DNA of 64,000 nucleotides from Chiloscyllium plagiosum (lineage: Eukaryota). Position 1 is the stretch's first letter, and each line of letters opens with the position of its first letter. The notes beneath the pieces were generated by a model that saw nothing but the letters and a program-made list of their open reading frames with translations, made no database searches and was not told where the DNA came from. Below are positions 950 to 63,220 of this stretch, in pieces. The position numbers and the translations under genes are program-made. Location: assembly GCF_004010195.1 (NCBI RefSeq), contig NC_057718.1, positions 85,760,283 through 85,824,282 on the forward strand, written 5' to 3'.

Positions 950-1945
950 AGTAGGCACTTTGCATCCTCACTTCCCACACCTCGACCTTTGAGCTCCACC
1001 CCTTCAATTGCAACAAAAACTGAACCTTCCTGGTCCTCACCTTCCACCCCACCATCCTCCAGATCCAACGTATCATCCTCCACCATTTCTGCCACCTACA
1101 AACAGATTCTACCACCAGAAATATATTTCCCTCCCCATTCCTCTCTGCATTCCACAGAGACCATTCCCTCTATGACTCCCTTGTCCAAGCCCACCACCAA
1201 CCCACCCACCACTCCTGGCACCTTCCCCTGCCACTGCAAGAGGTGTAAAGCCTGCGTCCACACCTCCCACCTCACCTCCATCTAAGGCCCCAAAGGATCC
1301 AAAGGATCCTTCCATATCCAGCAGAGATTTTCCTGCACCTCCAAACACCTCATCTACTGTGTCCATGACTCTTGAGGTGGTCTCTTCTACATTAGGGAGA
1401 CAGGATGCCAACTTGTGGAATGTTTCAGAGAACATCTCTGGGATACATGCACTAAACATCCCCACCGCCTTGTGGCCGAACACTTCAACACCCTCTCCTA
1501 CTCCGCCAAGGACATGCAAGTCCTGGGCCTCCTCCACAACCAAATTCTAGCCACCCGATGCCTGGAGGAAGAGAGCCTCAGATTCCGCCTTGGGACACAT
1601 GGGATCAATGTTGATTTCACTAGTTTCCTCATCTCCCTTCCCCCACCTTATCACAGATCCAACTCTCAAACTTGGCACCGCCCTCTTGAATTGTCCTACC
1701 TGTCCATCTTCCTTCCCACCTATCTGCTCCACTCTCCATTCTGACGTATCACCATCACCCCCACCTTCATCGACCTATTGTATTTCCAGCCGCCTTTCGC
1801 CCAACCCCATCCCCCCTCCCATTTATCTCTCAGCCCCCTTGGGCCTCCCCACATTCATGATGAAGAGCTTATGCTCAAAATGTCGACTCACCTGCTCCTC
1901 AGATGCTGCCTGACCTACTGTGCTTTTCCAGCACCACACGTTTGG
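950..1945 (+). mobile_element. Penelope-like retroelement 3' part: degenerate GIY-YIG endonuclease region plus terminal repeat with a hammerhead motif
   Basis: Broken reading frame with PCHCKRCKAC, LIYC...FYIRETG...FREH, VAEHFN, MQVLGL, LEEESLRFRLGT.GIN. It is followed by a C/T-rich UTR and ATGATGA-A-GAGC-TTAT-GCTC-AAAA-TGTC at 1857-1884. Confidence 0.85.
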
Positions 1946-4019
1946 ACTTTGCATGCTTCAGCAATTTCCCAGCTCCAAAACTTGCAATGAACTGATCTCC
2001 CAGCAAACACACAGATTAATTGAAACTAAACAGTGAATGGGATTTTTTGAGGAGTGACGATCTCAATCTCAAGTAGATTGTCACTGTGGTCCTCTTCTTA
2101 CAAAAACAAGGGAGCTCTGCATTTCCGAGAAGAGATTTCACTTGGGGATCCCACAGAAATACAGAAGCATTCTTCCACCACATGTTGAACTGTCAGATGT
2201 AGGTAAATCATGTCCCCTCTCCACAGCAGTCAGCTGCCGTATCCTGAAGTGTAAAGGTTCTGATGGCCACTTTGCCAGTTACTGTCAAACCGTATGTACA
2301 GAAGGGCAGTGTGATGTTAAGATGCCAATGGATAGGGCTAAAGGTCAGTAGGATGCCAGCTGGGAAATCAGTCAGTTGTCGAGTGGTGGGGTGGCATGTG
2401 AACATTCCAGATGAGTAGGAAGTAAGGTGCTAGGAAAGTAAGGATCCAGACAGGAAGGGGATGGGTGCCAGGTAAGTTGGATGCCAGGAAAGTAGGGACC
2501 AGGATAATAACTGTGTAGGGTGTCAAGCTGTGTAGGAGGAGGATAAGGTGTTAGGTGGATAGAATGCCAAAGGTGAGGGGGTAGCATGCCATGCAGTAGG
2601 GAACAAAACTGTAAGGTGGCAAGGTAAGTGATTTCGGGTAGTTAGGGCTATCGGGCAAAATTGGGTTTGCAGTGGAAGGTGGGTGTTCGGATCTGAGTGT
2701 TTTGGGGTTGGCAGGTTTTGGGGTTTTGAGTCAGTTTGAGTAAGAGTGGTTGTAGAATTGGCTCAGGTCTAATGGCAGAGGGGGTCAGGATGTGTACAGC
2801 AATGGGAAGGGGAGTGTGGGAATGGTGGGCTGGTCCCAGTGCGGGGAATTGGGTTGGCATTGGATTGTGTATGACAGGAGGTGCAGGTTGGGTCCCACTG
2901 TGGAATTGGGGAGGGGTGTGTTGGGTCAGTTTCAGGGGCAGAAGTGTGGGGGGTTGGGTTCTATGTTGTGCCAGAGACTCAGGGGTGTAAGTGGTTTGGA
3001 GAATGTATGGTTGGTTTTTGGGGGCTATGAGGTATGAGTGGTGTCTGTTAAGTAATTACTCTGAAGTTAGACTACATATGTAACAGTTTAACACTTCCTG
3101 AGTCACCATCTTACTTAATTTTACTGTAAACCTCCAAAGTCTTCTACATAAGTGGACACTTTTGGAGAGTTCCAGATATTGAGGAATTTCCCAGTGGGAA
3201 ATTCAATTTCCTGCACAATTCCTTTGGAGTCTGCTATAATGGAGATTCCCAATCTGCAATTCCTACAACTCTGGAATAATGACTGCCTGGCCCATGGAAA
3301 AAAACTGGGACAGCATTCCTCAGCTTTATCCAGTTCTCATCTGTCCTTATCCTATCTTTTACTTTAAATGTCCCTCATGAACTGTTTCTTTGCAGCCTTT
3401 TAAGATTCATGGAATACTTTTGCTCTCAAAACAAACAATCTCTCTGCACTGCTTTGATTACGAAAAGCAGCATAGACACCACGAGCAGAACTTTTATCAA
3501 TAATCAGCCAAGTGTCAATCGTGGGGAATTTCATGGGGTGGAAAGGTGATCTCTCTCCATGAGTTTTAGTGAGTTTTCTTGTGCTGTTCTCTGCCTCATT
3601 AACTACGTACCACACCTCCATGCTACCCCACACACACTATCTTCCACTCAGCGATGACAAAAATATTCGCTACTGCCCGGACTTCCTGGAATTCCTGACA
3701 CTGGTGTCATTTTTATTACCAGAAATGGTCGAAAATGATAACTTCTATAGAACGTCAGCACAAAGAATGAAACAAACACATGCTGTAGTGGCTTCTGGTA
3801 CAAGCACAGGGACCACTTGCTTGTTGAGCATTAACAGATTTAGAGTCAGTGTGATCTCTGCACCCAACTCACATCTGTTGGAACTAGATGTCAATAAAAT
3901 CCTGTCCGACTTGATATGTCTGAGACTGCAGCACTCTATCATGCAAAAGGCGATGTCTCTCCTGCATGGTGTTGCTGCTGCTGCTTTCCCAGCTCTTCGC
4001 AGTCCATCTCATTCACTCC

Positions 4020-5400
4020 TTGCCTCCAGATGCGCAGTGCCCAGCATCCTATGATTATGCGACACAGTCTTCAGATCGTACTGTAAGGACCCCAAACCCC
4101 TCCTGCTCCCCAGACTTAACCAGGCATCAAAACCTCATTTTCAGGAGGCCTTTTATCTGCTCTATGAGAACCCTGGTTGAAGAATAGGTTGCAACGTATC
4201 TACACTCAGCCTCAGTCAGGGTGTTGCATGTTGGAGTCACCAGTTGCCAAGGAGAGCTTTTGTCTCCCCATCTCCTGTTAACCAGCTTGTAAAGCATCTG
4301 CACTTTGAAGCAAGAGCATGAGAGTCCTCAAGGATATTGGGGTAAAGGCAGCTCTCAGGTTACCTGCTGCATACCTGTATCAGTCAAAAGTCAAGAGTAG
4401 CTTTATTTGTAATTTCTACCTTATATACAGTAAAAACAAGGCAGCGTTCCTATAGGACCAGGGCTCTACATGGACAGCTCAAGCTCCATGATCATATGCA
4501 AGGAGGCATAAGGAGCATAAGAAGTGCAAAACATGCAAGGCAGCACAGTAATACCTGACTCTCAAGACAGTAGGCAGAGTGGTGTACAAATTACAGTGTT
4601 ATAAAAGAATGATAATGAATAAAACATTGTTCTAGCAGCAATTCAAAGTCTTGCAAAGAATTTGAGATGGAATAGAGTCCGATCATGCTGTGTTAAGGAG
4701 CCTGATGGCTCGGGGGATGAAATTGTTGCAGTCTGGCCGTGAGAGACCAAATTCTCCAGTATCTGCTGCCAGATGGCAGGAGGGAGAAGACTTTGAGTGA
4801 GGGGTGTGTGGGTCTTCCACAATGCTCTTAGCCTTTCGGATGCAGCGACTGGTGTCAATGTCTGTAATGGAAGGAAGAGAGACCCTGGTGACTTGTTTAT
4901 TAATTGAATAGAAATCTTTTCTGTGGATGAAATCAATTGCCTGATGATACAGTGCTCTCAATGTGATGTGTGTACACTCTATGGCATCCTGGCCCTGGGG
5001 GAGGGCAGCTTTGTTTGTAAAGTTAACTGCCCGGGCTGCAACACTGACCGCGTCACGGGGAAACTCAGGAAACATGTGATCTGGCACAAATTCCATCCTT
5101 GATCCATTTCTGGATTGAGGATTGTGAGACCCCTCACAGGTCCCCAATGGAACCCCAGAAGCAGCCAGTTGTATAAAGTCTAGCATAGGTCTCACCTTGA
5201 CCACTTGACCAACCACTCCATTAGGCCCCACTCCAGCAGTTCTGTGATGGTGCCCTGGAACATTCACAGCATGTGATGGACTTGCACCCTTGGGCACCTG
5301 GAGGAAATGACATCGAGGATGATAGACTCTGGGCCTCCTCTGCACCTGGAGATCTTCAGCTGTGACTTCATCCTGTAACTGCTGCTGACTATGACCTGCT
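4020..5400 (-). pseudogene. Decayed PIF/Harbinger (HARBI1-like DDE) transposase, interrupted by a LINE
   Basis: Minus-strand translation gives PQGQDAIECTHITLRA..FIHRKDFYSINKQ (cf. GAIDCTH...NRKG..S.NVQ). Beyond the insertion it gives IQVCSR*PESC, WLTGD, TEAECRY...TRVLIEQIKGLLKMRF*CL and LQY. Stops and frameshifts are present. Confidence 0.8.
4385..4890 (-). mobile_element. Rex1/Babar-type LINE 3' end inserted in the Harbinger transposase
   Basis: LPSITDIDTSRCIRKAKSIVEDP...LLPSG...FIPRAIRLLN C-terminus; the 3' UTR ends AATAAA followed by CTTGA/TTTGA tail repeats. Confidence 0.75.
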
Positions 5401-5469
5401 GAACTGTTGCCATCATGTTCAATATTTGCCCTGCTGCTAAGTTTTGAATCCTCCCCAAACTTTGAAATG

Positions 5470-10799: not shown

Positions 10800-10910
10800 T
10801 CAAGATCTGAATGTGAGTCATATCTGACTTGAGACGTTAACTCTGTTTCTTTCTCCACACTTGCTGCCAGACCTGCTGAGTTTCTCCAGCATTCTCTGCA
10901 CTTTTGTTGC
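10800..10910 (+). ncRNA. Degenerate PLE-derived hammerhead element (family 2)
   Basis: CTGAATG-T-GAGTCA-TATC-TGACTT-GAGACGTT-AAC followed by the shared tgctgccagacctgctgag block. Confidence 0.6.
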
Positions 10911-13320: not shown

Positions 13321-13518
13321 AAAACAGAAATTGCTGGAGAAACTCTGTGGGTCTGGCAGTATCTGTGGAGAGAAAGTAGAGTTCTGAAATTCTGAAGGAG
13401 AGTCACCAGACTCAAAACTTTGCTTTCCCTCCACAGATGGTGCCAGACCTGCCGAGTTTCTCTGGCAATTTCTGTTTTTGATTCAGATTTCCAGCATCTG
13501 CAGTTCTTTGTTTTATTG
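13321..13518 (+). mobile_element. Palindromic PLE terminal-repeat derivative (family 2) with a central degenerate hammerhead
   Basis: 13321-13383 is the imperfect reverse complement of about 13416-13478; the centre is CTGAAGG-A-GAGTC-ACCA-GACTC-AAAAC. Confidence 0.75.
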
Positions 13519-13759
13519 AAGGTTATCTCATTTCTGTTTCAATTGTGTATTTGGATCAATACAAACAAGGATTGTGTAGGAACAGGAAGAGGTCATTCAG
13601 TTGCTTAAACCTGCTCCACCATTTGTGACTAATCTGTATCTCAACTCTGTTCACACAACTAATTGTCTGCAACTCTCAAAACACTTATACTACAAAAATA
13701 TACCAATCTTGGTTATGAAAGCTCAAATTGAACCATCAAGAGGTTTTCTGGGAGTATTC

Positions 13760-14078
13760 TTAACATGGTGGCTCATAGTGTCAAGGACCTGGGTTCAATT
13801 CCGGCCTTGGATGCCTGTCTGTGTGGAGTTTGCATGTTCTCCCTCTGTCTGTCTTTGTTTCCACTGGATGTTCCAGTTTCCTCCCAAGGTCCAAAGATAT
13901 GCAGGTTAGGTGGCTTGGCCATTTCCCATAATGTCCAAGGATGTGAAAGCTTTATGCATTAGCCATGGGAAATGTGGGAGTTTAGGAATAGGGTGGTGGG
14001 TCTGGTTGGGATGCTGTATGGAGATCAATGCAGACTTGATGGATTGCATGGTCTCTTTCTGCACTGTAAGGATTCAAT
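13760..14078 (+). mobile_element. HE1/V-SINE
   Basis: B box gggttcaattcc, V-domain tctgtgtggagtttgcatgttctcc, CR1-like tail. Confidence 0.85.
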
Positions 14079-15652: not shown

Positions 15653-15811
15653 CTACAAATGGTTGTTCTTGGACAGGTAGGCTATCAGTGCCACGGCAAC
15701 ACCCACGTAAATGCCAGTTCCGATGGTGATTGAGAGCACAGCCAAGAACAGCGCACGTCTGGAACTTGAGCTGGCATGGTGGTAGTCTCCCTTTGCCACA
15801 CCCTTGTTGGT
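15653..15811 (-). CDS. SYNDIG1: SYNDIG1 last coding exon ([52 protein letters not shown]), transmembrane segment
   Basis: Translated by hand (too short for the ORF track). Acceptor ttctattcactcctccttag|ACC; TAG stop at 15655-15653; the C-terminus YLSKNNHL is characteristic of SynDIG1. Confidence 0.98.
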
Positions 15812-16189
15812 CTAAGGAGGAGTGAATAGAAATAAATGGTTTTAGTCAGTGAGGAATGGCACATTTTTCATTCACGATCAAACACATCTTTAACCAAAGA
15901 GATTTTAATCATTTTCAATCAAAACGGTATTGTATCATAACACCTTTAGATATGCTGCTGTTTACAAAGTATTTATATCAAGGAAATCAAACCCTTCACA
16001 ATGTAATGTACTAACAGTCAGGTATGGAAGATTTCAGTACCTAGTGTTAGCATAAGCTCTGACAGCAGGTTCAAATAAAACAATCACATTACTCAGTGTT
16101 AGTTTTTCAATAAGATAGCTTTAGGTTCAACTCCATTGGAGAGATGCCGGCCCAGTACTGAGGGAGTGCTAGGCAGAGGTGGGTACTTC

Positions 16190-16307
16190 AGATGCTGGGG
16201 ACTAGAGTCAAGATTAGAGTGGAGCTGGAAAAGCACAGCAGGTCAGGCAGCATCCGAGGAGCAGGAAAATCGACGTTTTGGGCATAAGCCCTTAATCAGG
16301 AATGAGG
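16190..16307 (-). ncRNA. PLE-derived hammerhead element (family 1) inserted in a Deu-SINE
   Basis: Minus strand reads CTGATTA-A-GGGC-TTAT-GCCC-AAAACGTC-GA, then ggatgctgcctgacctgctgtgcttttccagc. The flank tgagggagtgc is duplicated at about 16159 and about 16303. Confidence 0.75.
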
Positions 16308-17963
16308 GAGTGCGGCTTTGTTGAGAGGCGCTTGTATAAAACAGTGAACCAAGATCCTCTCAGACGGACTTAAAAAAAATCCCCAGGACACTATTTTGAA
16401 CTAAGCCGTGAGGAAGCTTGAGGATTTTCAACCTTGGAAGACAGTTTCTGAGATTTAGTTGCACAGAGGGATTTAAGATTGCAAATTGTGTGGAAAGGGT
16501 GAATTTGAAATAAATCGCAGTGTCAGTTTCAAAATGCCATTAGAAATTATTTTATCATTTCCTAAGTAAAGAAGTGGAGGTGAAACCCCTTGAATCATTT
16601 AAAACAGTCGGACCATTCCAGATGGATGGCGTAAGATGGGCCAAATAACCTGTCCTCCTTGGGCTTATAATTGTTGGAGTTCAGAAGAATAAGAGATCTT
16701 CTAGCAACATGTAAGATTCTGATGGGGCTTTGGTGGTGCGATGTTAGTGTCATGGGCCAGGAGGTCAGAGTTCAAGACCCATCTGATTCCAATTTGTGTA
16801 CGAACAAATTGACTAAACTAACTCTAAGATACTGAGATTGTTTGAAAATCAAGAGACTGAAAAATTGTTCTCTCTTATGTGGGAATCTAGAATGAGGGGA
16901 ACAGCTTAAAGATAATGGCTCTTCCATTTAAGATGAAAATAAGGTGCAATTTCTTCCATTAGAATGTGATTGGTCTTTGGAATTCATTCACACACATAAG
17001 CATTTCACATATTTAGATATAAATATTCCTTGAATATATGGAATACAGGGCTTACAATCATGTTTCATTAGTGATGTGCAAGCATTGATTGATTATCCGT
17101 GACAGATTCAGATGTGCGACAATCTGGAGATGCACTGATCAGTAAAGAAGCTAAAATTTAACTTTGTTTTGCAATTTTTTCCACCTTGAAAATAAATTTC
17201 TGCCATCCAGGGAACAAAATTAACAGTCAATATCTGTAGGACTCCACAGTAAAGAAAGCAGCCACTGGGCCCCACAGATCTATACAGGTATTGTTCCATC
17301 CTAGCATCTTCAGTGCATAATATTAACAGCCTCTATCCCATTCTCCCTCATGTGGATATCTAGATCCCCCCAAGCAATCCATGTAGCAGCAAGTTTCACA
17401 TTTACACCGCTCCCCAGGGTGAAAGTCTTTCTTCTGAAATCCTTATGAGGTATGGTAGTTTGTTTAGTACATTATCTGCTATCTATACTTTACCTTTGGT
17501 GCACAAAGATGGGGTTCTTTGAAAGAATGTAGAGGCTACTTGAAAAGGTTAACCAGAGTTTTCAGGAAGGTTGGAAGGTAAGACAACAATTCTTGAAAAC
17601 AATTCAGCCCTCTCAACTTCACAAATCTCTGGATGGATCTCAAAGAGCCAAGAGAAAACAAAGCCGCTGCATTCAACCTTCCTTCTCTTTACAGGACTCG
17701 AGCAAAAGTACATTGTAAACAGCATCAATCTCCTCCTGTGTGATTTATGTGTTGGACCGTACGGGTGCATTGCTGTCTCGGTTGTGAGTTAGGACGTTGT
17801 TACTTCCACTGAGGGCATGTTGCACTTCCAGCTTTCCATTGAGAGGCTTCACCAAAGTCTATCCTCCTGGGTGTTTGCACAAAGATATTTTGTGGTATCT
17901 TCCCAAGAGTAGGGGTGGGACCTCTTCAGGGCCCCGATTGCTATTTGCCCTTGAACTCAGCAC

Positions 17964-21549: not shown

Positions 21550-23281
21550 CTTACAAAGACATCCAAAGGGATTTTATGAACATTTTAAAGGAGAGAATAG
21601 GTCCCCTTAAAGACCAACAAGGCCATCTAATATATGAAACAGCAGGAGATGAGTGAGATACAAAATGAGTATTTTGCATCAGTATTTATTGTGGAGAAGA
21701 ATATTAAATCTAGAAAACTCGGGGAAATAAATAGTGATACCTTGAAAACTGTCCTTATTGCAGAAGAGGAGACATCTTAAAATGCATAAAGGTGAATAAA
21801 TCCCTGGGACCTGATTGGGTTTATCCCAGAACTTTGTGGGAATCTAGGGGAATGATTGCTGAGCCCCTTGCTGAGATATTTTTATCAATAGCCACAAGTG
21901 AGGTGCCTGAAGACTGGAGATTGACAGCACAATGTTAGTCAATCAAGAAAGGTGGTGAGGGAAAGCCAGGGAACTATAGACTAGTGAGGCTGACAGCAGT
22001 TGTTGGAGGAGGGTGGGGTTCTGAAGGATAGGATTTACATGTATTTGGAAAGACAAGGACTGATCAGGGAGAGTCAACATAGCTTTGTGCATAAGAAATT
22101 GTATCTCACTAACTTGATTGAATTTTTTGAAGAATTGACAAAGAAGATTGATGAAGGCAGAGTGGTATATGTTGTCTATATGGACTTCAGCAAGGTGTTT
22201 GACAAGGTTCCACATGATAGATTGGTTAGCAAGGTTATATCACATGGAATCCAGAGGGAACTAGATAATTGGATACAAAATTGGCTTGAAGGTAGGAGAC
22301 AGAGGGCAGTGGTGGATTATTTTTTGGACTAGAGGCCTCTGATCAGTGATGTGTCACAAGGATCAGTACTGGATCCACTGCTATTCACATTTATTTAAAT
22401 GATTTGATTATAAATGTAGGCAATGAAGTGAGGAAGTTTGCAGATGACACCAAAGTTGGTGATGTAGTGGACTGTGAAAAAGGTTGCCTTAGATTACAAA
22501 GGGTGGAGGAGAGGCAAATGAAATTTCATTTAGACAATTGCAAGGTGTTGCATTTGGGTAAGGCAAATCAAGTGCAGGATATAGACAGTTAATGGTGTGG
22601 CCCTGGGAGTGTTGCCAAACAAAGGGACCTTGGAGTACAGGTGCATAGCTCCTTGAAAGTGGAGTGGCAGGTAGAGAGGGTGGTGAAGGTGGTGTTTGGC
22701 AAGCTTGCCTTTATTGGTCAGTGCATTGAGTATTTGGAATAGTGCCTTGAATTCTTCTCTCCCTGCTATAGGAAAGATGTAGGTAAACTTGAAAGGATTC
22801 AGAAAATAAATTACAAGGATATTGTCTGGGTTAGAGGGTTTGAGCTAGAAGGAGAGGTTGGATAGGCTGGGGCTTTTCTCACTGGAGCATTGGAGGCTGA
22901 TGGGTGACCATATAGAGGTTTATAAAATCATGAAGGGCATGGATAAGGTGAATAGTCAAGGTGTTTTTTCCCCAAGTGGAGGAGTCCATAACTAGAGGGC
23001 ATGGATTTAAGGAGAGAGGGAAAAGATGGAAAAGGGACCTTTGGGGCAATGTTTTCACTCAGCAGGTGGTGCATGTATGGAACAAGCTGCCAGAGGTAGT
23101 GGTGGAGGCTGGTACAATTACAATATTTAAAAGGCATCTGGTTAGTTATACGAATAGGATGGGTTTAGAGGGATATGAGCCAAATGCTAGCAAATGGGAC
23201 TAGATTGATTTGGGATATCCGGTCGGCCTGGATGAGTTGGATGGAAGGGTCCGTTGCTGTGCTGTATAACTTTACGACTCT
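21550..23281 (+). mobile_element. CR1/HER1-type LINE, about 1.7 kb 5'-truncated, with internal deletions
   Basis: ORF 22000-22332 (SQHSFV..LTNLIEFFEE..VYMDFSKVFDKVPH), KFADDTK and TRGHGFK; tail gactc. Confidence 0.95.
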
Positions 23282-30150: not shown

Positions 30151-31009
30151 ACCCCTCAGTCGCTCTCTCTCCCCAAATCTGTGGATGATTATGGGTTGGG
30201 AACAGTGATACTGTGTCTAGGAGGTTGCAACCACTGAGACAGAGGGCTTTAGGATCTAGTGGTGTAATAAGTCTGAGGAGAGAGATCCGGAGGTCCAATA
30301 GTGTAAAAAGCAACCTGGGAGCATGGGATGGTAGTATGTTCCAATATTGTTGGCAAAGGAAGATCTATTATCCTCTTGGGAGAATGGAACTCAGGAGAAT
30401 GGGACCCAAATTGTTAGTGACACTTATCAAGCTATCAGATTAACAGTACATTGAACATTTTCCTCGTGAGTGGTGGGTGTCCATATTTATGTTGCTGCTT
30501 TTAAGCATTTAAGGATTTTTTCCTTAAATTAGTGAATAGAAAAGAGCTTTATTCATACAGCACCTCTAGACATCCCAAACCGCTTTACAAATAAAGATGT
30601 TCTATTGAAGTGTACCCATTATTGATACAAGAGAGATTTGGAAAGGTTTTTAAAAAGATTTTCAATGAGTTAAAAATTCAAGCAGGGCTTTCACAGTTAC
30701 AAAGGATTGAGTCAGCCAATTATTAATCTGCTGTCAAAAACCAGCCTTTCCTTTTAAAAAAAAATCACTTGCCATTTTGTTTAAAAAAGGATCAAATGCT
30801 GCCTTTAATTTAACTCCCGTCATTCCTGAGATCAGACAATGTACAGGGTGATTTCCTCTGAACCTGACTGGTTCTATAAGAGAGGGAGAGTGGGTAACGA
30901 GAGCTCAGTAAAGGGGAGGCAAGTGAATGGTAGTAAAGGTGCATCGGGTGGGTGATGGAGAGCGAGGTGGTGAGGGCTTAAGGCAAACCAACACAGACAG
31001 AGTTGTAGG

Positions 31010-31212
31010 GTGAAAGTGAGGACTGCAGATGTTGAAGATTAGAGTCGAGAGTGTGGTGCTGGAAAAGCACAGGTCAGGCAGCATCTGAGGAGCAGGAGAA
31101 TCGACATTTCGGGCAAACTCCTGATGAAGGGCTTTTGCCCAAAATATCGATCTTCCTGCTCCTGTGATGTTGCCGGACTTGCTGTGCTTTTCCAGCACCA
31201 TACCCTTGATTC
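31010..31212 (+). mobile_element. Palindromic PLE terminal-repeat derivative (family 1) with a central hammerhead
   Basis: About 31042-31117 is the imperfect reverse complement of about 31134-31203; CTGATGA-A-GGGC-TTTT-GCCC-AAAATATC-GA at 31121-31150. Confidence 0.8.
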
Positions 31213-31295: not shown

Positions 31296-31608
31296 GGGCA
31301 GCACGGTAGCACAGTGGTTAGCACTGCTGCCTCACAGCTCCAGAGACCCGGGTTCAATTCCCGCCTCAGGCGACTGACTGTGTGGAGTTTGCACGTTCTC
31401 CCCGTGTCTGCCTGGGTTTCCTCCGGGTGCTCCGGTTTCCTCCCACAGTCCAAAGATGTGCAGGTCAGGTGAATTGGCCATGCTAAATTGCCCATAGTGT
31501 TAGGTAAGGGGTAAATGTAGGGGGTATGGGTGGGTTGCGCTTCGGCGGGGCGGTGTGGACTTGTTGGGCCGAAGGGCCTGTTTCCACACTAAGTAATCTA
31601 ATCTAATC
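31296..31608 (+). mobile_element. Near-intact HE1/V-SINE
   Basis: GGGCAGCACGG start, A box TAGCACAGTGG, B box GGTTCAATTCC, V domain, many CpGs retained, (TAATC)3 tail. Confidence 0.93.
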
Positions 31609-40059: not shown

Positions 40060-40282
40060 ATGCCTCTCAGCGCTGGGGGCGTGGGTTCAATTCCACCGGC
40101 AGGCAATTGTCTGTGTGCAGTTTGCTACATTGCCCGTAGTGTCCAGGGATGTGCAGGCCAGTTGGATTAGTCATAGGAAATGCCAGATAATAGGGTAGGG
40201 GGCTGGATACGATGCTCTTTGGACGGTCAGTATGGAATCGATGGGCTGATGGCCTGCTTCCACACTGCAGGGGTTCCATGAC
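40060..40282 (+). mobile_element. HE1/V-SINE, internally deleted
   Basis: B box gggttcaattcc; tail ggcctgcttccacactgcagggg. Confidence 0.75.
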
Positions 40283-41210: not shown

Positions 41211-41859
41211 CCAAAAAATGTTTTTATTCTCCTGTCCTAAAATGCTTCATTCTCAGACCATTCCCCGACTTGCTTTAGTCTGTCCACTGCTTTTCTCCTT
41301 AGTTTCATTTCTATTGAGCTTGGCTTCATTTTCCGGGGACACTTTCCTCCCTAATACTACTTTGAAAAGCTTTGTTACTCCAATAATTCCCCATTTCGTT
41401 GAGACACTGGTCCCATTCCATTCCAGGGGAAATCTGTCCCATTGGCATACTGGGTCAAGTTGGAACAGTATCAATGGATAGAAACACCCCTTTCCTACTG
41501 CAGCTTTTAGGCACAGCCTTTTCGGGGAGACTAGAAGTAGAGAACATTGTTTCCAAATAACAGGCTTCACATTTAAGAGTGTGATAGGGAGAATTCTTTC
41601 CTCTCAGTGGATCGTGAATCTGTGGAACTCTAGTGGAGGCAGGGTCATTGAATAATTCTGATAATAGTAAGAATGTATCTAACTCAGTGAGGCAGTCAAA
41701 GGGTATAGGGAATAGGCAAGAGAATGGAATTTGCAATCCAAATAGATCAACCATGTTCTGATCAAATAGAGAGCAGGTTTAAGGACTTACTTTTGCTCCT
41801 GTTTATTTTTTTTTAAGTTAATTATTGCTCACTATATCATTTTAATTGCATGACACTGT

Positions 41860-42002
41860 GAATGTTTACTATAAATTCCATGACTTATAATCCTGCCCCA
41901 CTAGTTACCGGATGAAACAGCGCTCTGAAAGCTAGTGCTTCCAAATAAACCTGTTGGACTATAACAGGGTGTTGTGTGATTTTTAACTTTGTACACCCCA
42001 TC
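41860..42002 (+). ncRNA. Degenerate PLE-derived hammerhead element (family 3)
   Basis: TAC-CGGATGA-aacagcgctct-GAAAGCTA-GTG (palindromic AGCT stem III), followed by aataaacctgttggactataac. Confidence 0.55.
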
Positions 42003-42314: not shown

Positions 42315-42452
42315 TTCGTGTGAAAGGTAGAAGGCAGCGATTCCCAAAGGCCAGAAGCAGCAGAGCATGGAGAAAACGCTAAGGCCCAGATGGTCCCTGG
42401 GTGGTATCATCAGAAAATTGTCCTCACTTTCCGTCTCACTTGAGTAATCACT
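42315..42452 (-). CDS. SYNDIG1: SYNDIG1 second coding exon (46 codons, [46 protein letters not shown]), start of the CD225/dispanin domain
   Basis: Acceptor ttttttgattttgtgcag|AGT and donor GAA|GTAAGT; 138 nt, phase 0/0; CCFWPLGI motif. Confidence 0.98.
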
Positions 42453-43040: not shown

Positions 43041-43267
43041 TCTCAACTGAGGTTAAAGCAATTCTTAAAGAACTATGTTTGTCAATCTTCAATTTTGCTT
43101 TTCCAGGGAGGCAAAATTTGACTTAAGATCCTACAATTCTTTGCCAATTGAGAAAGGTGCACCACTGATGCATTCAGAAAACAGGTAGAAATAGATTGTG
43201 CCAACTTGAGAAATACAAAAACTAGAAAATAGACTCAAATGAGGAGAATAGGAACTATTGTGAATTG

Positions 43268-43400
43268 TTATGAAAAAGAGTCGTTTCAGATTTGAAGCAT
43301 TAGCTTTTTCTCTCCCCAATACTGCCAGACCTGCTGAGTTGCTCCAACATTGTGTTTGTTTCTGATTTCCAGCTTCTGCATTACTTTGTTTTGATTTAGC
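43268..43400 (+). mobile_element. Highly degenerate family-2 PLE/hammerhead element
   Basis: atgaaaaa-gagtc..gattt-gaagc then actgccagacctgctgagttgctccaaca..gatttccagcttctgca. Confidence 0.55.
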
Positions 43401-46324: not shown

Positions 46325-47105
46325 CGCAACTAAATCAGCTGGGTCAAAGGGCCAAGCAGTGGCAGATGCAGTTTAATTTAGATAAATGTCATTTGTTGCA
46401 TCTTGGAAGGCCAAACCAGGACAGGACTAACACAGTTAATGGTAAGGCCCTGGGGTGTGATGTCGAAAAAAAGAGACGTGGGTATGTAGTTCCTTTAAAT
46501 GATTCCCTTCCTGATGTAGGGCTTATGTCCAAAACATCGACTCTCCTGCTCCTCGGATGCTGCCTGACCTGCTGTGCTTTTCCAGCACCACTCTAGACAC
46601 TGATCTCCAGCAAGTGCTGTCCTCACTTTCTCCTCATTCCTTTAAAGTTGTGTGACAGGGTGGTGAAGGCAGCATTTGAGATGCTTTCCTGCATTGGTCA
46701 GAGTATTGAATATAGGAGTTGGGACGTCATTTTGCAAGTGCACAGGATGTAGGTGAGGCCACTTTTGGAATACCACATACAGCTCTGGTCGCTCGGCTTT
46801 AGGAAGGATATCATTAAATTAGAAAGGGTGTAGAAAAGATTTACAAAGATGTTGCTGGGATTGGAAGATTTTAGTTGAGAGAGACCAGATAGGCTGGGAC
46901 TTTTTTCCCTGGAGCATAGGAGGTTGAGGGGTGAGCCTATAGGGGTTTATAAAATCATGAGGGTGGGGTGAAAAGCCAAGATCTTTTCCTGAGGGTGGGG
47001 TAAATTCAAAACTAGAGGGCACAGACTAAAGGTAAAAGGGGAAGGATTTAAAAGGAACCTGTGGGACAGAATTCTCACACACAGGTTGGTTTGTGTATGG
47101 AATTA
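46325..47105 (+). mobile_element. CR1 LINE 3' part carrying a hammerhead-element insertion
   Basis: QWQMQFNLDKCHLLHLG motif; aaactagagggcac; interrupted at 46500-46636. Confidence 0.88.
46500..46636 (+). mobile_element. Stand-alone 137-bp hammerhead element (family 1) with a 10-bp target-site duplication
   Basis: TTCCTTTAAA at 46490-46499 and 46637-46646; CTGATGT-A-GGGC-TTAT-GTCC-AAAACATC-GA at 46511-46540. Confidence 0.85.
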
Positions 47106-47290
47106 ATTGAAAAAGGTGTTGCTGGAAAAGCACAGGTCAGGCAGCAACCGAGGAACAGGAGAATCAAAGTTTTAGGCATGAGCCCTTCTTCAGGAATGAG
47201 GAAGGTGTGCCAAGCAGGCTAAGATAAAAGGTAGGGAGGAGGGACTTGGGGGAGGGGCGTTGGCAATGCGGTAGGTGGTTTCAGGTAGGT

Positions 47291-47324
47291 TTCCTGAAGA
47301 AGGGCCTGTGCCCGAAACGTCGAA
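47291..47324 (+). ncRNA. Minimal type-I hammerhead ribozyme with intact catalytic core
   Basis: TTC|CTGAAGA|A|GGGC-CTGT-GCCC|GAAA|CG|TC^|GAA. Stem I is TTC/GAA, stem II is 4 bp, stem III is the palindrome ACGT. Predicted cleavage after GUC at 47321. Confidence 0.8.
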
Positions 47325-47511
47325 TCTCCTGTTCCCTGGATGCTGCCTGAGCAATAAAGTTTCAACTTTGATCTCCAGCATCTGCAGACCTCACTTTCTC
47401 CTCCGGAAAGAGGTTAAGGTGAGGGTGATCGGCCGGAGAGGGGGTGGGGGCAGAGAGGTCGGGAAGAAGATTGCAGATCAAGAAGGCGGTGCTGAGTCTG
47501 AGGGTTGGGAC

Positions 47512-47768
47512 NNNNNNNNNNNNNNNNNNNNNNNNNNNNNNNNNNNNNNNNNNNNNNNNNNNNNNNNNNNNNNNNNNNNNNNNNNNNNNNNNNNNNNNNN
47601 NNNNNNNNNNNNNNNNNNNNNNNNNNNNNNNNNNNNNNNNNNNNNNNNNNNNNNNNNNNNNNNNNNNNNNNNNNNNNNNNNNNNNNNNNNNNNNNNNNNN
47701 NNNNNNNNNNNNNNNNNNNNNNNNNNNNNNNNNNNNNNNNNNNNNNNNNNNNNNNNNNNNNNNNNNNN
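47512..47768. other. Assembly gap (257 N)
   Basis: Run of N. Confidence 1.
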
Positions 47769-49111
47769 GGGGTCTGTTTGGAGGTGGCGGAAATGACGAA
47801 GGATGATACGATGTATCTGGAGGTTGGTGGGGTGGTAGGTGAGGACCAGTGGGGTTCTGTCCTGGTGGCAATTGGAGGGGCGGGGTTCAAGGACGGAGGA
47901 GCAGGAAGTGTACTTCATTTTAAATGTAAAACTAGGCCATTTAATAAGTAATTTCAGAAGGTACTTTGTGATGCAAAACATTAGAAATCTGGAATCAATG
48001 CCCTCAAAATATGATGGATTCTGGGCCAAATTGTATGTTCAGGACTTGAAAGTTTTCCACAAATTTTGTGGGATAAAGGTATTGGTAGATATAGAGCAAT
48101 GGCAGGTCAATGGAGTTAAGGTGCAGATTGGCCAGGACCTATTACAATGGAGGAAAAGGGGCGGAATGGCTGACCACTATAGGTTAGTGGGACCCTGATT
48201 TTGCTGCTGTATCAGGCTGGGATAGATAAAGAAAAGGAGACCCAATTCTGCGATGTCTGCTCCCATTTCCACCTTCTTCCATTTTCAAGGACGCGGGACA
48301 TTGGTGAAATGTTGTTAGCGTTCATTCAGAAATCCCCAACACTACAGGTTTCATTGCAGGTGTGGCGCTTTCTGAGCTCTTGCAATCTCCAAGGGGTTGC
48401 TGCTGACTTTGGAAATCTTCTCAAGATGATATGGTTCATTTCAGGTCAGATGCGTTGTGAAATATGTCAGAAGCCTATCTAAATTTTGGGTCCTATTTTG
48501 CAGGTAAATTTAAAAATGCGTTGACAACTTGACACTTGAAAAAAATTCTTCAACATTTAATTAAAGTGTGATTTCATTACTGTGATTGATCATAGGCATT
48601 TGTTCGTACAAATGTAAGTGGCCATAAAACTGACCAGCAAAGTGAAGGCATTCAGACGCTTTAGGGTACTTTATCCAGTGGATCAATATTCTTTTGCATT
48701 GAACAATATGATTACGACTGTCATGTATTAGTTGAACCAAGTGCTTTTTTGCCTTTCATTGGCAGGCCAGCCATCTGATCAGCCTTTGCTCAGTGGAACA
48801 GATGGCTGAGTTTTACAACTGACAACTCAGTCATCTTTTCAGCATTTGAAATGTGAAACCCCTGGGATCTGTTTCACTGCATGAAAGGCTTTAATATATT
48901 CAGACCCTAGGCTCTTTGCCGACCAGCCTATGCCATGAAATCTCATTATGAAAGTTTGGTGAAACTTCAAGCCCCATTAATGGGGCCAATTTTATTTCTG
49001 GCTAGACATTTAATGAGAGGTCTATTTTCCATCCTTTGGGGAAGAAATGCATTTTAAATGTCAGCTTAAGTGACTTGTGGTTTTCAGAGATCATAGAGCC
49101 GAGAGATCAGA

Positions 49112-52431: not shown

Positions 52432-52782
52432 TGACATGGGGGCTCAGTGGTTAGCACTGCTGCTTTACAGCACCAGGGATCCGCATTCGATTCCACCCTT
52501 GGGCGACTGTCTGTGTGGAGTTTGCATATTCTTCTTGTCTCTGCAGGAGTTTCCTTCAGGTGTTCCCATTTCCTGCCACTGTCCAAAGATGTGCAGGTTA
52601 GGTGGTGGGGCCATGGGAAATTGCCCATATAGAGTCCATTGATGTGTAGGATGGTTGGGTTAGCCACGGGAAATTTGGTATTATCAGGAGTGGGGAGGTG
52701 GGTCTGGGTAGGATGCCCTTCAGAAGGTTGGTGTTGACTTGATGGGCCAAATGGCCTACTTACACTATGTAGGGATTCTATT
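52432..52782 (+). mobile_element. HE1/V-SINE
   Basis: ggctcagtggttagcactgctgc head, V domain, tail agggattcta. Confidence 0.88.
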
Positions 52783-55972: not shown

Positions 55973-55974
55973 TC

Positions 55975-57035
55975 ACTGAAATGTTATGGTGCAGAAAGAG
56001 GCTATTAGGACCATCATCCCTGCACTGGCTCTCCCAATGAGAAGCAGGAATTAGTGCCATTCTCCTGCCTTTTCCCTGTACCTTTCCACATTGTTTCTTG
56101 TGTAAATAAATAGAATGCCCTCTTGAATGGCACAATTAGATTGGTGTCACCGCACTTTCAGGCAGTGCATTCCAGACCTGAACAATTCATCGTTATTTGT
56201 TTAATGACCTTAAATGTTATCTGCTTACAAGGTTAAGGATATTTTCTGGAGGTTAAATGGATAAATTGCCTCATCACATCACCTTTGCTTCTTTTCCAAG
56301 TCACTAAATATGTGCCTTTTCATTCTTGATCTTTTTAATCAAGAACCAGGCAGTAGAGTTGCTCAGTGGTTAGCATTGCTGCCTCATAGCACCAGGGACA
56401 TGGGTTTAATTCCACCCTCAGATGACAGTCTGTGTTGAGTTTGCACATTCTCCCTGTATCTGTGTGGCCTTCCTTCAGGTACTCCAATTTTCTCCCACAG
56501 TCCAAAGATGTGCAGATTAGGTGGAATGGCCATGGGCTGGGTCTGGCTGAGAATCACTTCAGAGGGTCAGTGCAGACTTGATGGGTTGAATGGCCTCAAC
56601 CTACATTATACAGAATCTAGAATTCTCTCAGTTTCTCCCTATCCTCCCTCTCTCTCCAGCCACCTCACAAAATTTAGAAAATTTCTACCACATTGCTAAG
56701 CCTTCTTTTCACCCAGGAGAACAACCCCAAATTCTTCGATCTACATTCATAACTGAATGTTTTCATCGCTGGAACCATTCTTATAAATATTGTCTGCACT
56801 CTCTCACATTCTTCTTATAGTATGGCACCCAAAACTGTGCACAATACTCCATCTGAAGTCTAGCCAATGTCTTAAACAGTTTTGGCCTAACTTCCTTGCA
56901 TTTGTAACTTCTGTCCATGTTAATAAAGCCCAGGATGCTTTATGCTTATTAACTGCTCTCTCCACCTGTCCGGCCACCTTCAATGATCTGTGCACATATA
57001 CACTTCGATCCAACTGTGCAGCCTTTCCTGTTGGA
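55975..57035 (-). mobile_element. CR1 3' part interrupted by an HE1 SINE (+, about 56348-56622)
   Basis: ORF 56804-57043 (VHRSLKVAGQVERAV); SINE head gctcagtggttagcattgctgcctcatagc. Confidence 0.8.
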
Positions 57036-57664
57036 CTAGACACATACTGCTCTAGGAAACTCTTGTACCTAATTAAGGAACATTTTCCCTTTACTGCTCT
57101 TCACCAGTATCCTTGGTTGGGTAATTGAAAATCACTCATTAAAACTAATCTCGCATCCAATTGGTTTGAACAACTTGTACCCCAAAAATATTTGGCACGC
57201 AGTCCTGCCTCTACTTGATCCAGGTCCCTGTTATCACCAAAACATCAGACTCCCAACATGGTGATCTGCATCTATAAACTCCCCAATCCTAGTAACACTA
57301 AACTATACTCTATGAATTCACATACATGCACATTAATGTTGATTTAGAGGATATAATGCAAGTTGGTCTTTTAAAAAAACTAGTTCCTAAAACCCCTTTG
57401 ATTATTCCTCAGTGAAAGTGGGAAAATGTACACTGAAATCTGCTCAGTGAACACAACCTTCAGTACATATTGGATTGTTGACAATTTTTACAACACTGTC
57501 AAGGGTCTTCCCAGCTTCTGGCTCTGTAGCGGTGAGAGATCTCTGTCCTCTGCTTATCCAGCCCATCTCTGACTCCCTTCACTTCACTGTTTGTCTATTA
57601 AGCATTTAGCAGCTCAAACCCAGGACATCGAGCTTGAGGTAACAATTTGAAAAATGTTTCCTAC

Positions 57665-58147
57665 CTCCAGCTCTTGGAAGTCATCCTCGTCGTCCACATC
57701 GTAAGACAGGGTTTGGACTTTATTGTCATCAGCTGATAGGTCGATGAATTGGCTGTCTCCAAAATCCAGCCCATCCTTTGTGGGGGATCTGCTTTCAATG
57801 AAAGTTGTTTCACAGCAATCTGAACTATTGCTCTCACTCCAGGGTCTCAGCATGCTCTCAGAGTACAAAATGATATTGGGTCGGTACTGGGCCTCAACGG
57901 TGTGCTGCAAGGTGCTGGGGTTGAGGACTTGTTGCTGGCCAGAGTCATTCCTGCTCCTCTCAATGTAGTTGTGAGATGGGAAACTCCCCAATGTGTGTTC
58001 CTGGTATTGAGGAGCTGAGTAAACGGATCCCAATCCATCCTTGCCATCTATCGCCAAGTCTTTGGTGTTGATTAGACCATTCCTCTTCCCAGTCTCATTG
58101 GCTGCTTTATGACTCAAACTCTTGCTTTGCTCCACAGGATTCTCCAT
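57665..58147 (-). CDS. SYNDIG1: Synapse differentiation-inducing gene protein 1, first coding exon (161 codons, MENPVEQ...EDDFQELE)
   Basis: Translation contains GKRNGLINT, YRPNIILYSE, DCCETTFIE.RSPTKD, FIDLSADD and TLSYDV..E..FQELE, matching vertebrate SynDIG1 as recalled. ATG at 58147 (the ORF-track start at 58195 is a TTG). Donor GAG|GTAGGA after 57665. Likely acceptor ttttttcatcag| gives an exon start at 58245. Confidence 0.96.
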
Positions 58148-58204
58148 TTTTTGTGTGTCACCTCTTGATTGTTTTGACTTCCCAATGCTGTCCAAGAGGA
58201 AGAG

Positions 58205-58225
58205 TTATTTAAGTGGCACCTGCAT
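58205..58225 (-). promoter_or_regulatory. Short upstream ORF (MQVPLK*) in the SYNDIG1 5' UTR, in frame with the main ORF
   Basis: ATG CAG GTG CCA CTT AAA TAA lies inside the predicted exon (acceptor at 58245), 78 nt upstream of the main ATG. Confidence 0.55.
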
Positions 58226-58394
58226 TCCTCCTCTAGATCTTCCTCCTGATGAAAAAACAGAATTTTTTTTTGCTCATTACTTCAAAACCAAGTTAAGACT
58301 CTCCATAGATTCCTCAGAGTTACTAGGCCCTCAATTTGCTCCCTCCCTAAAGTTTCTCAATTTTCAGGTCTCAAATCAACAACTCACTTTTATA

Positions 58395-59712: not shown

Positions 59713-60217
59713 TCTAGGAGTCAGTCTATTGTCTAATTATCAATGGTAGATAATCATAATGTCTCAACTAGAGGCAATTGTCTTATATAACAAAGCATAA
59801 TTAATTGCATGATACGATTGGGTATAATTAACATTAACTAGTTCGGAAGAATTACAGCGAGGAGAAGGCAGGATGACATGTTTGTTTCCTCAGGATTTTG
59901 TGCAAGGCTGCTTACTTTTCACCTAGAGACTGTGACAGGGCAGCAGACTGGAGTGGAGCTTAAAACAGCTCAACATCAGCTCTTTCAGAATGATTACCTG
60001 ATACAAAAATGACTGTTCCTCACTAGTAGTCTAGATATTACACACAGGAGCTCACTTATTACAGAAATTTGAAATTGGTTTTGAATTGGCCAAGCCAACT
60101 GGTGTTCTGCATCATGTACTTTTGGACATATTGAACTTATAATACCTACATATGCTTTGTGAAGGAGAACTTTGACAGCCAAAGGATGACTGTAGATATC
60201 AGTTCAGTGGATCAGTG

Positions 60218-60526
60218 GATCAGTAATGAGACTTGTGGGCCAGGGGGTAGCTGAGAATGCAATAGGTTTATGAAGGTGAGGGTGAAAGTGATGGGAGGAT
60301 GGAGCGGATAGTTGGGAAGGAAGATGGATAGGTCAACAGGGTGGTACTGCGTTGGAAGCTTTGGACTGGGATAAGGTGGGGCGGAGGCAGAAATGAGGAA
60401 ACTGGTGAAATCCATGGGGTTGGAGGGTCCCAAGGCGGAAAATGAGGCATTCTTCCTCCTGGCGTTGGGTGGTTAGGGTTTGGCGATGGAGGCGGCCCAG
60501 GACCTGCATGTGGAGGGGGAGTTGAA
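60218..60526 (-). mobile_element. Penelope-like element 3' fragment (GIY-YIG C-terminus plus UTR), truncated at the hammerhead CTGAT
   Basis: Minus strand MQVLGRLHRQTLTTQRQEEECLIFRLGTLQP is homologous to 1514-1600. Confidence 0.82.
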
Positions 60527-61435
60527 AGACCTTTCAAAGACCTCAAGAACCACCGCATGACCAACCAGTACAGCCTGGCAATGAAAAGCAAGAGCAGAAA
60601 CCTGACAAAAAAGCGACATTACTTGATCTGGCTTTCTGCAGCAAGCAATTTGATGTTAATGCAAGGTCACCCACTAACTATGTTAAAAGGAATGGAACCC
60701 TTGGTGATTTCAGCACATCTCCCCTCTAAGCCATGTGCTTGCTTTCAAACCCTGTAGGAGTCACTAAAAATTTCCTTGCCCTGTGTTACAATGCTGGACC
60801 AACACTGTCACATAATAGGATGAGTACCAGGGATGAGTAATGTTTACTTTTAAAAATGTGCAAGAACCAGGAACTTACTAAGAGAATAAAGCCACATGAT
60901 TCCATGGATTTGAACAGTAAACTTTACTACACAACATTTGAACAGTGCTATAAACCTACAGTATATTGTATTTTCCAACCCCTTCAGATTAACAAGGTAA
61001 ATGAGTAATGGACTGTCATTGAACTCCTCACAGTCCAGAACAAATAACACATCTGATCAAGACGGAAATGTTTATGACACAATGGATGATCAAATCTCAT
61101 TAAGCCTGACAGGGGATGAAAATCCTCTACTCTTTTTTTGAACACTCAAAATCTCTCTCAAGAGCCTTCCATCATTACTGCACTCGGTCTAGTTGATCAC
61201 TGCCCCTTCCTGGGCCTCCACTCCCCTGGACTCAAACTGCATCTCAGCACTCATTCATAACCATAACTCCACGAAACTAAAACTGCCTCCAGCTTATTCC
61301 ACCTCGAGATTCATTCTTGCTCTGTGGTATCTAGCAAGTACAGCCTGAGAGTTTTCAATTCACACACTCTAATCTACACTGAAGTCTTAATGCTTGTAGG
61401 CTTCTTACAAGTCCCTCCTTACTCCCCCAAAACAG

Positions 61436-61468
61436 ATTCATTCATTCATTCATTCATTCATTCATTCA
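61436..61468. repeat. (ATTC)n microsatellite, about 8 units
   Basis: attcattcattc... read directly. Confidence 0.95.
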
Positions 61469-61873
61469 AAGTGGTAAAATAATTGGCTCTGACTCTTGAC
61501 CCCAGCATTTATCCCGTTGTTTGAATTTGCTCTGGAACTCTGACAGCTTAAAGCCATCCAACTGCACTGGACTCCTTCTCACGACCCCTACACAGGATCT
61601 GTATAGTTCAGCTCCCTTCCCAACAGAGCAGCTACACAGCAACATTTTGAACACAGTCAGCCTTGCTCCCTGAATTACATCCTCACCTCCCTACCTGGAA
61701 CCTTTCAACTCCTTTTCAGTCATCAACAATTTCCCAGCGTACCTAATCAAACAGCTTGCTATAGACCCTGCTCCTACTTCAGGCCAGAATTGCATGTGGA
61801 GAACATTTTGTGCCTCCCCAAGTCTGGTCATTCACACAGTTGAGGCCATGTTAAACTCCTATAAAGCAATAAT

Positions 61874-62190
61874 TTAGATTAGATTCCCTACAGTATGGAA
61901 ACAGGCCCTTCAGCCCAACAAGTCCACACCGACCCTCCGAAGACAAACCCACCCACACCGATTGCCTTCTGACTAATGCACCGAACACTGTGGGCAATTT
62001 AGAATGGCCAATTCACCTGGCCTGCACATGTTTGGACTGTGGAAGGAAAACAATGCACCCTGAGGAAACCCATGCAGACATGAGGAGAATGTGCAAACTC
62101 CACACAGACAGTCACCCAAGGCTGGAACTGAACCTCTGTCCCTGGCGCTGTGAGGCAGCAGTGTTAACCACAGCCATCTATGCCATGCCA
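61874..62190 (-). mobile_element. HE1/V-SINE
   Basis: ttagattagattccctacagtatggaaacaggcccttc tail; gtgcaaactccacacagacagtc; gctgtgaggcagcagtg head. Confidence 0.9.
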
Positions 62191-62339
62191 TGGCTGCAGC
62201 TGAGAACTGTAACCAATTCTGGGCGCCAGACCTCAGGAAATATGCAAAGCTTTTGCAGAAATTTATTAGAATGCTCCATTGCTGAGGAAATTACATTTAT
62301 ATACATTGACTAAAGCTGCAATAGTTACTCTAAAGGCAA

Positions 62340-62722
62340 AAAAATTGGGATGAATTAATTGATGGTGTTTGAAACCATCATGGGCTTAGACAGAGCAAAT
62401 GAAAAAAATCCATCTCCAATGGCTGTAGGATTAACAACCTACACTCGAGGACACTCATCGAAAAGGTGACTAGCAAAAGTAAAAAAACAATGACAGCAAA
62501 CAGATCTTTTATGCAACAACCAGTCAACATGAGAAGTATACTAACAGAGAATGGTGGAAATAGATTTCAATGGCAGTCTTCAAAAGGGAAAAGGATATTG
62601 TGAAAGAGGAAAAAGTGTGTGGAGGAGAGATCAGGGAATGGAATGCCCTGAATTGCCCTTTGAAATAGCTGGTGCAGAATTGATGGGCTGAATGGCCTCC
62701 TCCTGTGCTATTCTATGCTGTG
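62340..62722 (+). mobile_element. Old CR1 3' end
   Basis: tgatgggctgaatggcctcctcctgtgctattctatg tail. Confidence 0.6.
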
Positions 62723-63127
62723 ATACACTCAGTTTAAAGCCTGGAATCACTGGTGAGACTTGCCTGGGACATTAGGAATGGGCAACAGGAAATACACAAG
62801 TAAAAGGAGGGGAGGCAATATAAAAGGATGAAGAGAATGCTTATAGGAATGGTAGACAGAGAATGGCAAGGGAAGGGACTGAGGAAAAAAAAAAAGGGGA
62901 GGCTGAGACAGGAGGAGAATACAAAAAAAGAAAAACAAATATTGACCTTGGACAATAATGGGAAGGAGAGGATAAAATAGTCAGGGTGGAGGGTATGTGA
63001 AGGTATGATGCCTGGCAGAATGAAAAGGGCACTAGGGAAGGGAATGGAGTATAGGCTAGGGCAGAGGAGAGGAGAGGAAGGGAGCAGAAATTAAGGGAAG
63101 GGGCTTTGCAGCAATTGAACTAGAAAT

Positions 63128-63220
63128 AATATTGAAGGTCTCTATCTGAAACAGTGACCTACCTTCCAACGACAGATACTGATTTACCTACTGCACACTT
63201 CCAGTATTTTCTATTTTTAC
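63128..63220 (+). mobile_element. Very old family-2 PLE/hammerhead remnant
   Basis: tgaaggtc..tctgaaac..cagatactgatttacctactg..ttccagtattttctattttta. Confidence 0.4.

Follow-up and report, generated by a model that had tools for sequence, protein, structure and literature searches.

Short hammerhead-bearing repeats of a shark genome as ends and probable by-products of Penelope-like elements

What are the short hammerhead-bearing repeats that recur through a 64,000-nucleotide stretch of the Chiloscyllium plagiosum genome (3.56 Gb)? The whole stretch, here called the window, lies on contig C9 (NC_057718.1, positions 85,760,283 to 85,824,282 of the forward strand). An earlier note, made from its sequence alone, described about a dozen hammerhead ribozyme cores in three repeat families, mostly as stand-alone units of 100-200 bp, and interpreted them as high-copy, non-autonomous, retrozyme-like elements mobilised by Penelope-like elements (PLEs). 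We find that each of the three families represents PLE ends that carry a hammerhead, and the short units are very probably by-products of these elements rather than an independent element. They are likely to be run-off complementary DNAs (cDNAs) of the first 90-130 bases of the parent messenger RNA (mRNA), and probably dead copies. Positions with a sign are nucleotides counted from the C of the CUGANGA box (0).

The earlier note had attached family 1 alone to PLE coding sequence. The attachment is real but not confined to family 1, since longer copies of all three families are joined to PLE coding sequence. A genome search with the coding remnant at 930-1700 of the window returned copies in which a family-1 unit lies ~150 nt behind the endonuclease. 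The near-full-length family-1 copy L186/L399 contains an inverted copy, a partial tandem, a hammerhead, a decayed 3.28-kb frame for reverse transcriptase (RT) and endonuclease (EN), and a further hammerhead; direct terminal repeats formed by the partial tandem, with a hammerhead in each, were seen in this copy, in family 1 only. The endonuclease of a young family-1 copy (L324) scores above the Pfam cut-off for GIY-YIG, and the ends of families 2 and 3 continue into endonucleases homologous to it (39% and 25% identity, respectively). The family-3 RT matches RVT_1 with an E value of 1e-6, just below the cut-off. In families 1 and 3, the terminal repeat is preceded by a PLE-type RT and, after it, a GIY-YIG endonuclease with a CCHH motif; for family 2 we see the endonuclease only, the copies examined not reaching the RT. 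Pfam gave no GIY-YIG or RT match for the decayed coding pieces of the window, nor for those of most other loci, so the PLE identity is drawn from L324, L236 and pairwise comparisons.

Translations of L324, L204 and L095 contain a CX4CxxC linker before GIY-YIG in all three families. A CX2-5CxxC linker is described as marking Neptune and Nematis and as absent from Penelope/Poseidon (PMC8557442), and by this predicted linker the three families are C-terminal EN+ PLEs of the Neptune/Nematis type; an assignment of families 1 and 2 to Poseidon was dropped on the same ground. The nearest named relatives of the element's endonuclease are from carpet sharks. L148:105-917 (minus strand) and L239 near 418-885 of the turned locus belong to yet another PLE family, more distant than these three, whose RT and GIY-YIG pieces look Poseidon-like by their motifs.

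How many such ends are there, and where do they stop? A position-picked sample of 60 stretches of 10 kb on large contigs (568,099 called bases) contains 96, 47 and 17 arms of families 1, 2 and 3 that reach the 3' part, which extrapolates to ~0.55, 0.27 and 0.1 million arms, roughly a million in total. The exact pattern for an intact family-1 core occurs 79,576 times genome-wide, and its reversed control not at all. With these copy counts, and PLE coding sequence in the longer copies, the high-copy, PLE-mobilised, hammerhead-bearing units of the earlier note are borne out, and in the same sample its picture of mostly stand-alone units holds as a description. The short units measure 90-130 bases and form a discrete class that makes up about half of all copies. 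With arms that touch the edge of a locus or a run of N set aside (6, 0 and 1 of them), 5' ends fall at -15 to +5 in 50 of 90, 24 of 47 and 9 of 16 arms (families 1, 2 and 3), with a modal point at about -4 in families 1 and 2 and at -4 to -9 in family 3. For family 1, the stop rate in this interval is 0.052 per nt, tenfold that elsewhere (0.004-0.007). Of 92 consecutive intact cores on contig C1, the copy stops no more than 8 nt from the core in 46 cases and at 12-18 nt in 6, while in 39 it continues for at least 25 nt. The 38 upstream flanks of short single units are mutually unrelated except for one pair, and a splice acceptor at the 5' point was rejected, as these flanks share no common upstream exon. 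The 3' ends form two groups, at about +90 and +125 (~35-40 nt apart), and read and contig pile-ups on L186 fall in depth at about -4, +82 and +126.

Units so numerous, with sharply defined ends and target duplications, could also belong to a retrozyme- or SINE-like element (short interspersed element), whose short unit would be transcribed, processed by paired hammerheads to a circle or unit-length RNA, and spread by the PLE enzyme from master copies of its own. Tandem retrozymes have been described in one chondrichthyan (preprint 10.64898/2026.07.22.740005), and head-to-tail junctions do exist here. Genome-wide, however, family 1 has 8,741 head-to-head and 58 head-to-tail junctions, the former being ~150 times commoner, although the head-to-tail search pattern covers one tail type only. 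Neither the window nor the 60 sampled stretches contain a tandem array of hammerhead units. The sole array among the 58 junctions is L400:553-927 (contig C18, about 4168050-4168430), where no fewer than three 139-bp family-1 units, nearly identical and each with an intact core, follow one another head to tail beside an N gap, and this is the best retrozyme candidate.

A separate lineage of short units is likewise not apparent: among young family-1 copies, each of the five subfamilies with at least four copies contains both short and long copies. Identical 86-nt sequences form 9 groups, of which 4, the three largest among them, likewise mix short with long copies. The ends of the units do not lie at the ribozyme cut site, a placement that we rejected, since it is the end in only 1 of 54 partner arms (a sample partly selected by the junction pattern). 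The short units have no upstream TATA box and, by analogy with the element of the anole (PMC11167929), would also be missing the stretch of RNA past the RT start sites on which the protein depends. RNA reads occur on both strands, 94-98% of them continue into unlike flanks, and they show no pile-up of starts or ends; the data are 2% of one poly(A) single-cell run, a kind of library that cannot show circles, and the pattern fits passenger transcription. Contigs of uncertain kind were left out of the expression evidence. The earlier note's non-autonomous, retrozyme-like element is thus not supported, and we consider it very improbable.

Certain internally deleted copies, some with two direct hammerheads (L329), could be taken as favouring masters of such an element. 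Pieces of the element's 5' part, ending at ~+190 to +295 (four of them at +271 to +293), are joined to a 5'-cut terminal repeat in L277:593-808, L269:1140-1283, L386:2088-2405, L305:1107-1199, L329:1003-1240 and L010:1404-1494. Every one has its own junction, and a retrozyme master among the two-hammerhead copies was rejected on this ground. Where the 5' pieces end, there might be another RT start, or else a short promoter-proximal RNA might have its 3' end.

If the short units derive from PLEs, what sets their 5' end? In family 2, a TATA-like box at about -34 is present in 14 of 30 long copies (the only TATA-like hexamer, at -34/-32), together with an initiator-like TCAGTT that places an A at -4. 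In family 3, TATAAAT lies at about -39 in 35 of 52 copies, and the starts are shifted to -4 to -9. The distance from box to short-unit start is ~30 nt in both families, and family 1 has TCATT or TTATT, also with an A at -4. Because a TATA box lies ~30 nt before the starts in two families, the RNA's own start is favoured for this point, and we lean, by a little, towards reading it as the transcription start of the parent mRNA. The point might alternatively reflect ordinary 5' truncation at a roadblock: cDNA synthesis on a full-length RNA would begin in its 3' terminal repeat and usually halt immediately beyond the hammerhead, at an RNA structure, a bound protein or the upstream pyrimidine-rich tract. 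Such stalling needs no promoter, which suits a family 1 with no TATA box; heavy 5' truncation is typical of PLEs (PMC8557442), and a ladder of longer 5'-cut copies is also present here. An RT moving 3' to 5', however, would already have unwound the hammerhead before -4, which puts the stop on the wrong side, and the stop is ~30 nt from the TATA box in two families whose box-core distances differ. Stalling is in our judgement unlikely, but not to be dismissed.

The two groups of 3' ends, for their part, fit, by analogy across clades, the two RT starts of a PLE from the anole. In that element, reverse transcription begins internally at either of two positions, which set the tail; the two strands of the DNA are each cleaved and lengthened, and cutting by the ribozyme is dispensable (PMC11167929). 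The shark ends recur within head-to-head pairs: of 33 pairs in the 60-stretch sample, 29 combine one tailed and one tailless arm (p 5e-6), and the same combination is seen in 54 of 61 pairs from elsewhere in the genome and in all 3 of those counted in the window. Direct repeats of at least 8 bases surround 18 of 32 pairs, as against 6.8% of control flanks, and in family 1 the arms within a pair are closer to each other than to arms of different pairs in 51 of 57 cases. The flanking repeats and the subfamily changes shared by the arms mark each pair as one insertion.

For PLEs, both inverted partners and one-ended tails have been described (PMC3846280, PMC8557442), and so has a different origin for the second arm, which would arise by fold-back or self-priming of one strand and be trimmed later by the endonuclease, rather than by a second priming on the other DNA strand. 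Fold-back has been proposed for PLE palindromes (PMC3846280) and 'EN-mediated resolution' for the tail (PMC8557442), and arms that share subfamily changes are what a fold-back copy should have. One RNA read twice would explain these shared changes equally well, however, and the tailless end is equally common outside pairs (49 of 94 single inserts have no tail). This end also matches the second RT start in vitro, with both strands cut and extended (PMC11167929), and the pair junctions are asymmetric and contain fillers. For the pairs alone, fold-back is therefore a doubtful explanation, and priming on both DNA strands is the one that we carry forward.

Put together, these readings suggest a scheme that we consider somewhat more likely than not. 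Transcription would be driven by a promoter within the terminal repeat, and the mRNA would have its 5' end at the outer boundary of hammerhead helix I. The RT would begin inside the RNA at either of two sites, for which the anole element offers a precedent in vitro (PMC11167929), and when starting at the 5'-most copy of those sites it would reach the end of the RNA after 90-130 bases. Both cut DNA strands could prime, one at each RT site, and the two cDNAs would be joined by microhomology. The hammerhead would ride along, kept by selection in the parent elements and lost through CpG decay after insertion. In the strongest form of the scheme, to which we give slightly less than even credence, the mRNA would begin with the very first nucleotide of helix I, and the enzyme would prime at two sites near that 5' end, one for each DNA strand, the commonest product of the element thus being a strong-stop-like cDNA of 90-130 bases and not a shortened version of the full-length element.

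Several observations weigh against this scheme or against the transcription start within it. Family 1, the largest, has no TATA box but only a kept TTATCT at about -35, and the starts of family 3 are dispersed (-4 to -15) and subfamily-dependent, while ends based on profiles are accurate to a few bases only. As to a G derived from the cap, the base before the unit start is G in 6,433 and A in 3,546 cases genome-wide (background A 0.30, G 0.21), but in the loci read this G is mostly target or partner sequence, and G is frequent at other junction positions too. In the raw RNA reads, no position stands out as a frequent start or end of molecules, and the coding part is covered by hardly any of them. 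Target duplications of at least 8 bases flank only 13 of 85 single units (control 3.8%), and no intact full-length element was found among the genomic copies examined. Finally, Penelope of D. virilis has a TATA-less promoter (PMC2377424) and an intron before its hammerhead (PMC4209133), so the layout of promoter and hammerhead is not general.

Is the motif itself a hammerhead? The stem-II pairs quoted in the earlier note, and a stem III of ACGT or AGCT, are present in the sequence, and the features of a minimal type I hammerhead are all found: the conserved boxes, stem II, a palindromic minimal stem III and a short stem I. The note's claim of covariation in stem II stands for pair 2 of family 1 (G-C in 311, A-T in 36 and mixed in 11 of 365 copies, counted without requiring pairing) but not for the family-2 pair (p 0.2). 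The harvest patterns fixed some positions, so that this is not a blind test, and the family-1 change may be one subfamily event. Stems I, II and III differ between the families yet remain paired. All hammerhead features are intact in 19 of 96, 0 of 47 and 3 of 17 arms of families 1, 2 and 3 in the position-picked sample, and in 1 of 12 in the window. Two-copy fold prediction did not yield the active dimer shape.

L186 and L329 of family 1 show no break in frame between the hammerhead and the open reading frame (ORF). The shared ATG lies at +164 and another one, in frame at +14, is confined to some subfamilies; the idea that the ORF always starts in loop II was rejected, as it too holds for some subfamilies only. 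In the family-2 profile from +23 to +50 (e.g., L064, L086), the stretch around the cut site resembles the 3' end of an intron directly before an ATG, with a branch-point-like motif, a pyrimidine tract and CAG.

Within the window, family profiles built from genomic copies match 11 of the 13 sites listed in the earlier note over the hammerhead part (E ≤ 1e-3), so that its three families are real, with their coordinates and strands. Its dozen cores are mostly decayed, however: in a separate strict scan for cores, 47294 is the sole site with both catalytic boxes and the stems intact. Nine other listed sites with a core have changes at C3, U4, G8, A9, G12 or A13-A14, many of the core changes fall at CpGs, and an Rfam scan of the window returns no hammerhead even at E ≤ 1. 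The copy at 966..1945 (plus strand) is a 5'-cut family-1 PLE with a tailless end, and comprises a remnant of the linker and GIY-YIG (~1376-1630), the 3' terminal repeat and a decayed hammerhead (1853-1888), within a 9-bp target duplication (957-965 and 1946-1954). A family-1 single short unit at 16170..16302 (minus; G8 and G12 changed) has an 11-bp duplication (16159-16169 and 16303-16313), and a single tailed one at 46508..46636 (plus; A9 and G12 changed) has a 10-bp duplication (46490-46499 and 46637-46646) with an 8-nt filler at its 5' junction.

Family 2 is represented by a short unit at 10807..10910 (plus), both catalytic boxes of which are altered, by a single tailed unit with a decayed core at 43267..43400 (plus), and by a head-to-head pair. 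The tailed arm of this pair, 13388..13517 (plus), has a decayed core (A9, G12, and a deletion in stem III/I), and its inverted tailless arm, 13321..13383 (minus), which begins behind the hammerhead, is an additional profile match absent from the earlier list. In the family-1 pair, the tailed arm 31009..31119 (minus) starts within stem II and has no CUGANGA, in keeping with the truncation noted earlier at 31110, and the tailless partner 31118..31206 (plus) has lost G12. The family-3 copy, 41825..42000 (plus), is tailless and extends 84 nt upstream of its core, with a TATA box; U4 is changed and 3 nt of stem II are lost.

The sites 47193 and 47294, one of the three pairs counted in the window, are more likely the product of a later insertion by another subfamily. 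A longer family-1 PLE copy on the minus strand, 47104..47912, is interrupted within its terminal repeat by the intact-core tailed unit 47291..47405 (plus); the body of the interrupted copy (47414-47912) includes an N gap (47512-47768), and its end part (47104-47289) the decayed core at 47193. Short units nested in the terminal repeat or endonuclease region of other PLE copies were seen here (47104-47912), in L174:6827-7542 and in L267. The two remaining sites proved to be repeats without a recognisable hammerhead. At 60222..60526 (minus) lies a family-1 piece of endonuclease end and terminal repeat (profile match 60526-60246) that breaks off before the core, and 63135..63220 (plus) is a strongly decayed family-2-like copy (BLAST E 1e-9 to L301) that has no CUGANGA and that the profiles miss (best E 1.6).

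The introns of a CD225-family gene on the minus strand, which we take to be SYNDIG1-like, hold seven of the listed sites; its coding stretches lie near 57614-58204, 42315-42452 and 15653-15811. Another dispersed SINE-like family of ~300 bp occurs at 13743-13937, 28076-28378, 31302-31598, 40061-40275, 52435-52776, 56354-56615 and 61980-62171, and there are many RT remnants of LINEs (long interspersed elements), e.g., at 21994-22329 (RVT_1).

The value of these repeats lies in their scale and regularity, with about a million arms (extrapolated) and tens of thousands of intact cores, which make the shark genome a natural data set on PLE transposition. The scheme predicts a transcription start at the hammerhead edge and priming by each DNA strand at a different RT start. 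Should its strongest form be true, a step of PLE biology that is absent from the literature searched would be preserved in roughly a million inserts of this genome. The repeats are also a warning that hammerhead scans will overcall 'retrozymes' in sharks.

How do the shark families compare with systems already described? Their kind has been described before: hammerheads in the terminal repeats of PLEs, accompanied by inverted partners and by tails (PMC4209133, PMC3846280, PMC8557442). The earlier note had made novelty depend on whether its families were already of this sort, and in kind they are, as in PMC4209133. The minimal PLE hammerheads of that paper likewise have CUGANGA, a bulged base before stem II, G10.1-C11.1, a palindromic minimal stem III and a short stem I, and are mostly solo motifs from truncated PLEs, some of them close together on opposite strands. 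The text consulted mentions no sharks and describes no fixed 5' end, and its highest vertebrate count (about 9,000, Xenopus) is about a tenth of the 79,576 cores of one pattern here, though the methods differ. Insertions of the Neptune/Nematis type (PMC8557442, PMC3846280) share RT, CX2-5CxxC and GIY-YIG, partial tandems, an adjoining inverted 5'-cut copy, a one-sided tail of 30-40 bp, and variable target duplications. In place of a smooth truncation ladder, half of the copies here belong to a distinct minimal class that begins where the hammerhead does. Microsatellite targeting, a possible further difference, was not seen in the flanks read.

Poseidon PAc of Anolis carolinensis (PMC11167929) resembles the shark elements in its hammerhead at the junction of repeat and ORF, in two internal RT starts that define the tail, in the cutting and extension of both DNA strands, and in having no reads that end at the ribozyme cut site. 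It differs in belonging to the Penelope/Poseidon clade, without a cysteine linker, and by comparison the family-1 ATG inside the hammerhead is subfamily-specific, the shared one being that at +164. Non-LTR retrozymes, i.e., those without long terminal repeats (PMC7229834; Li et al. 2026 preprint), have in common with the shark units a type I hammerhead, a short unit and kinship with PLEs, but are described as tandem repeats expressed as circles, whereas the shark units are single or head-to-head and tandems are rare. The literature searched on sharks and on mechanism, which did not extend to subscription papers and preprint supplements, contains no description of these families or of a pile-up of 5' ends. 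What the analysis adds is that about half of the copies start within ~10 bases of helix I, that in two families this start lies ~30 bases behind a TATA box, and that tailed and tailless arms are paired.

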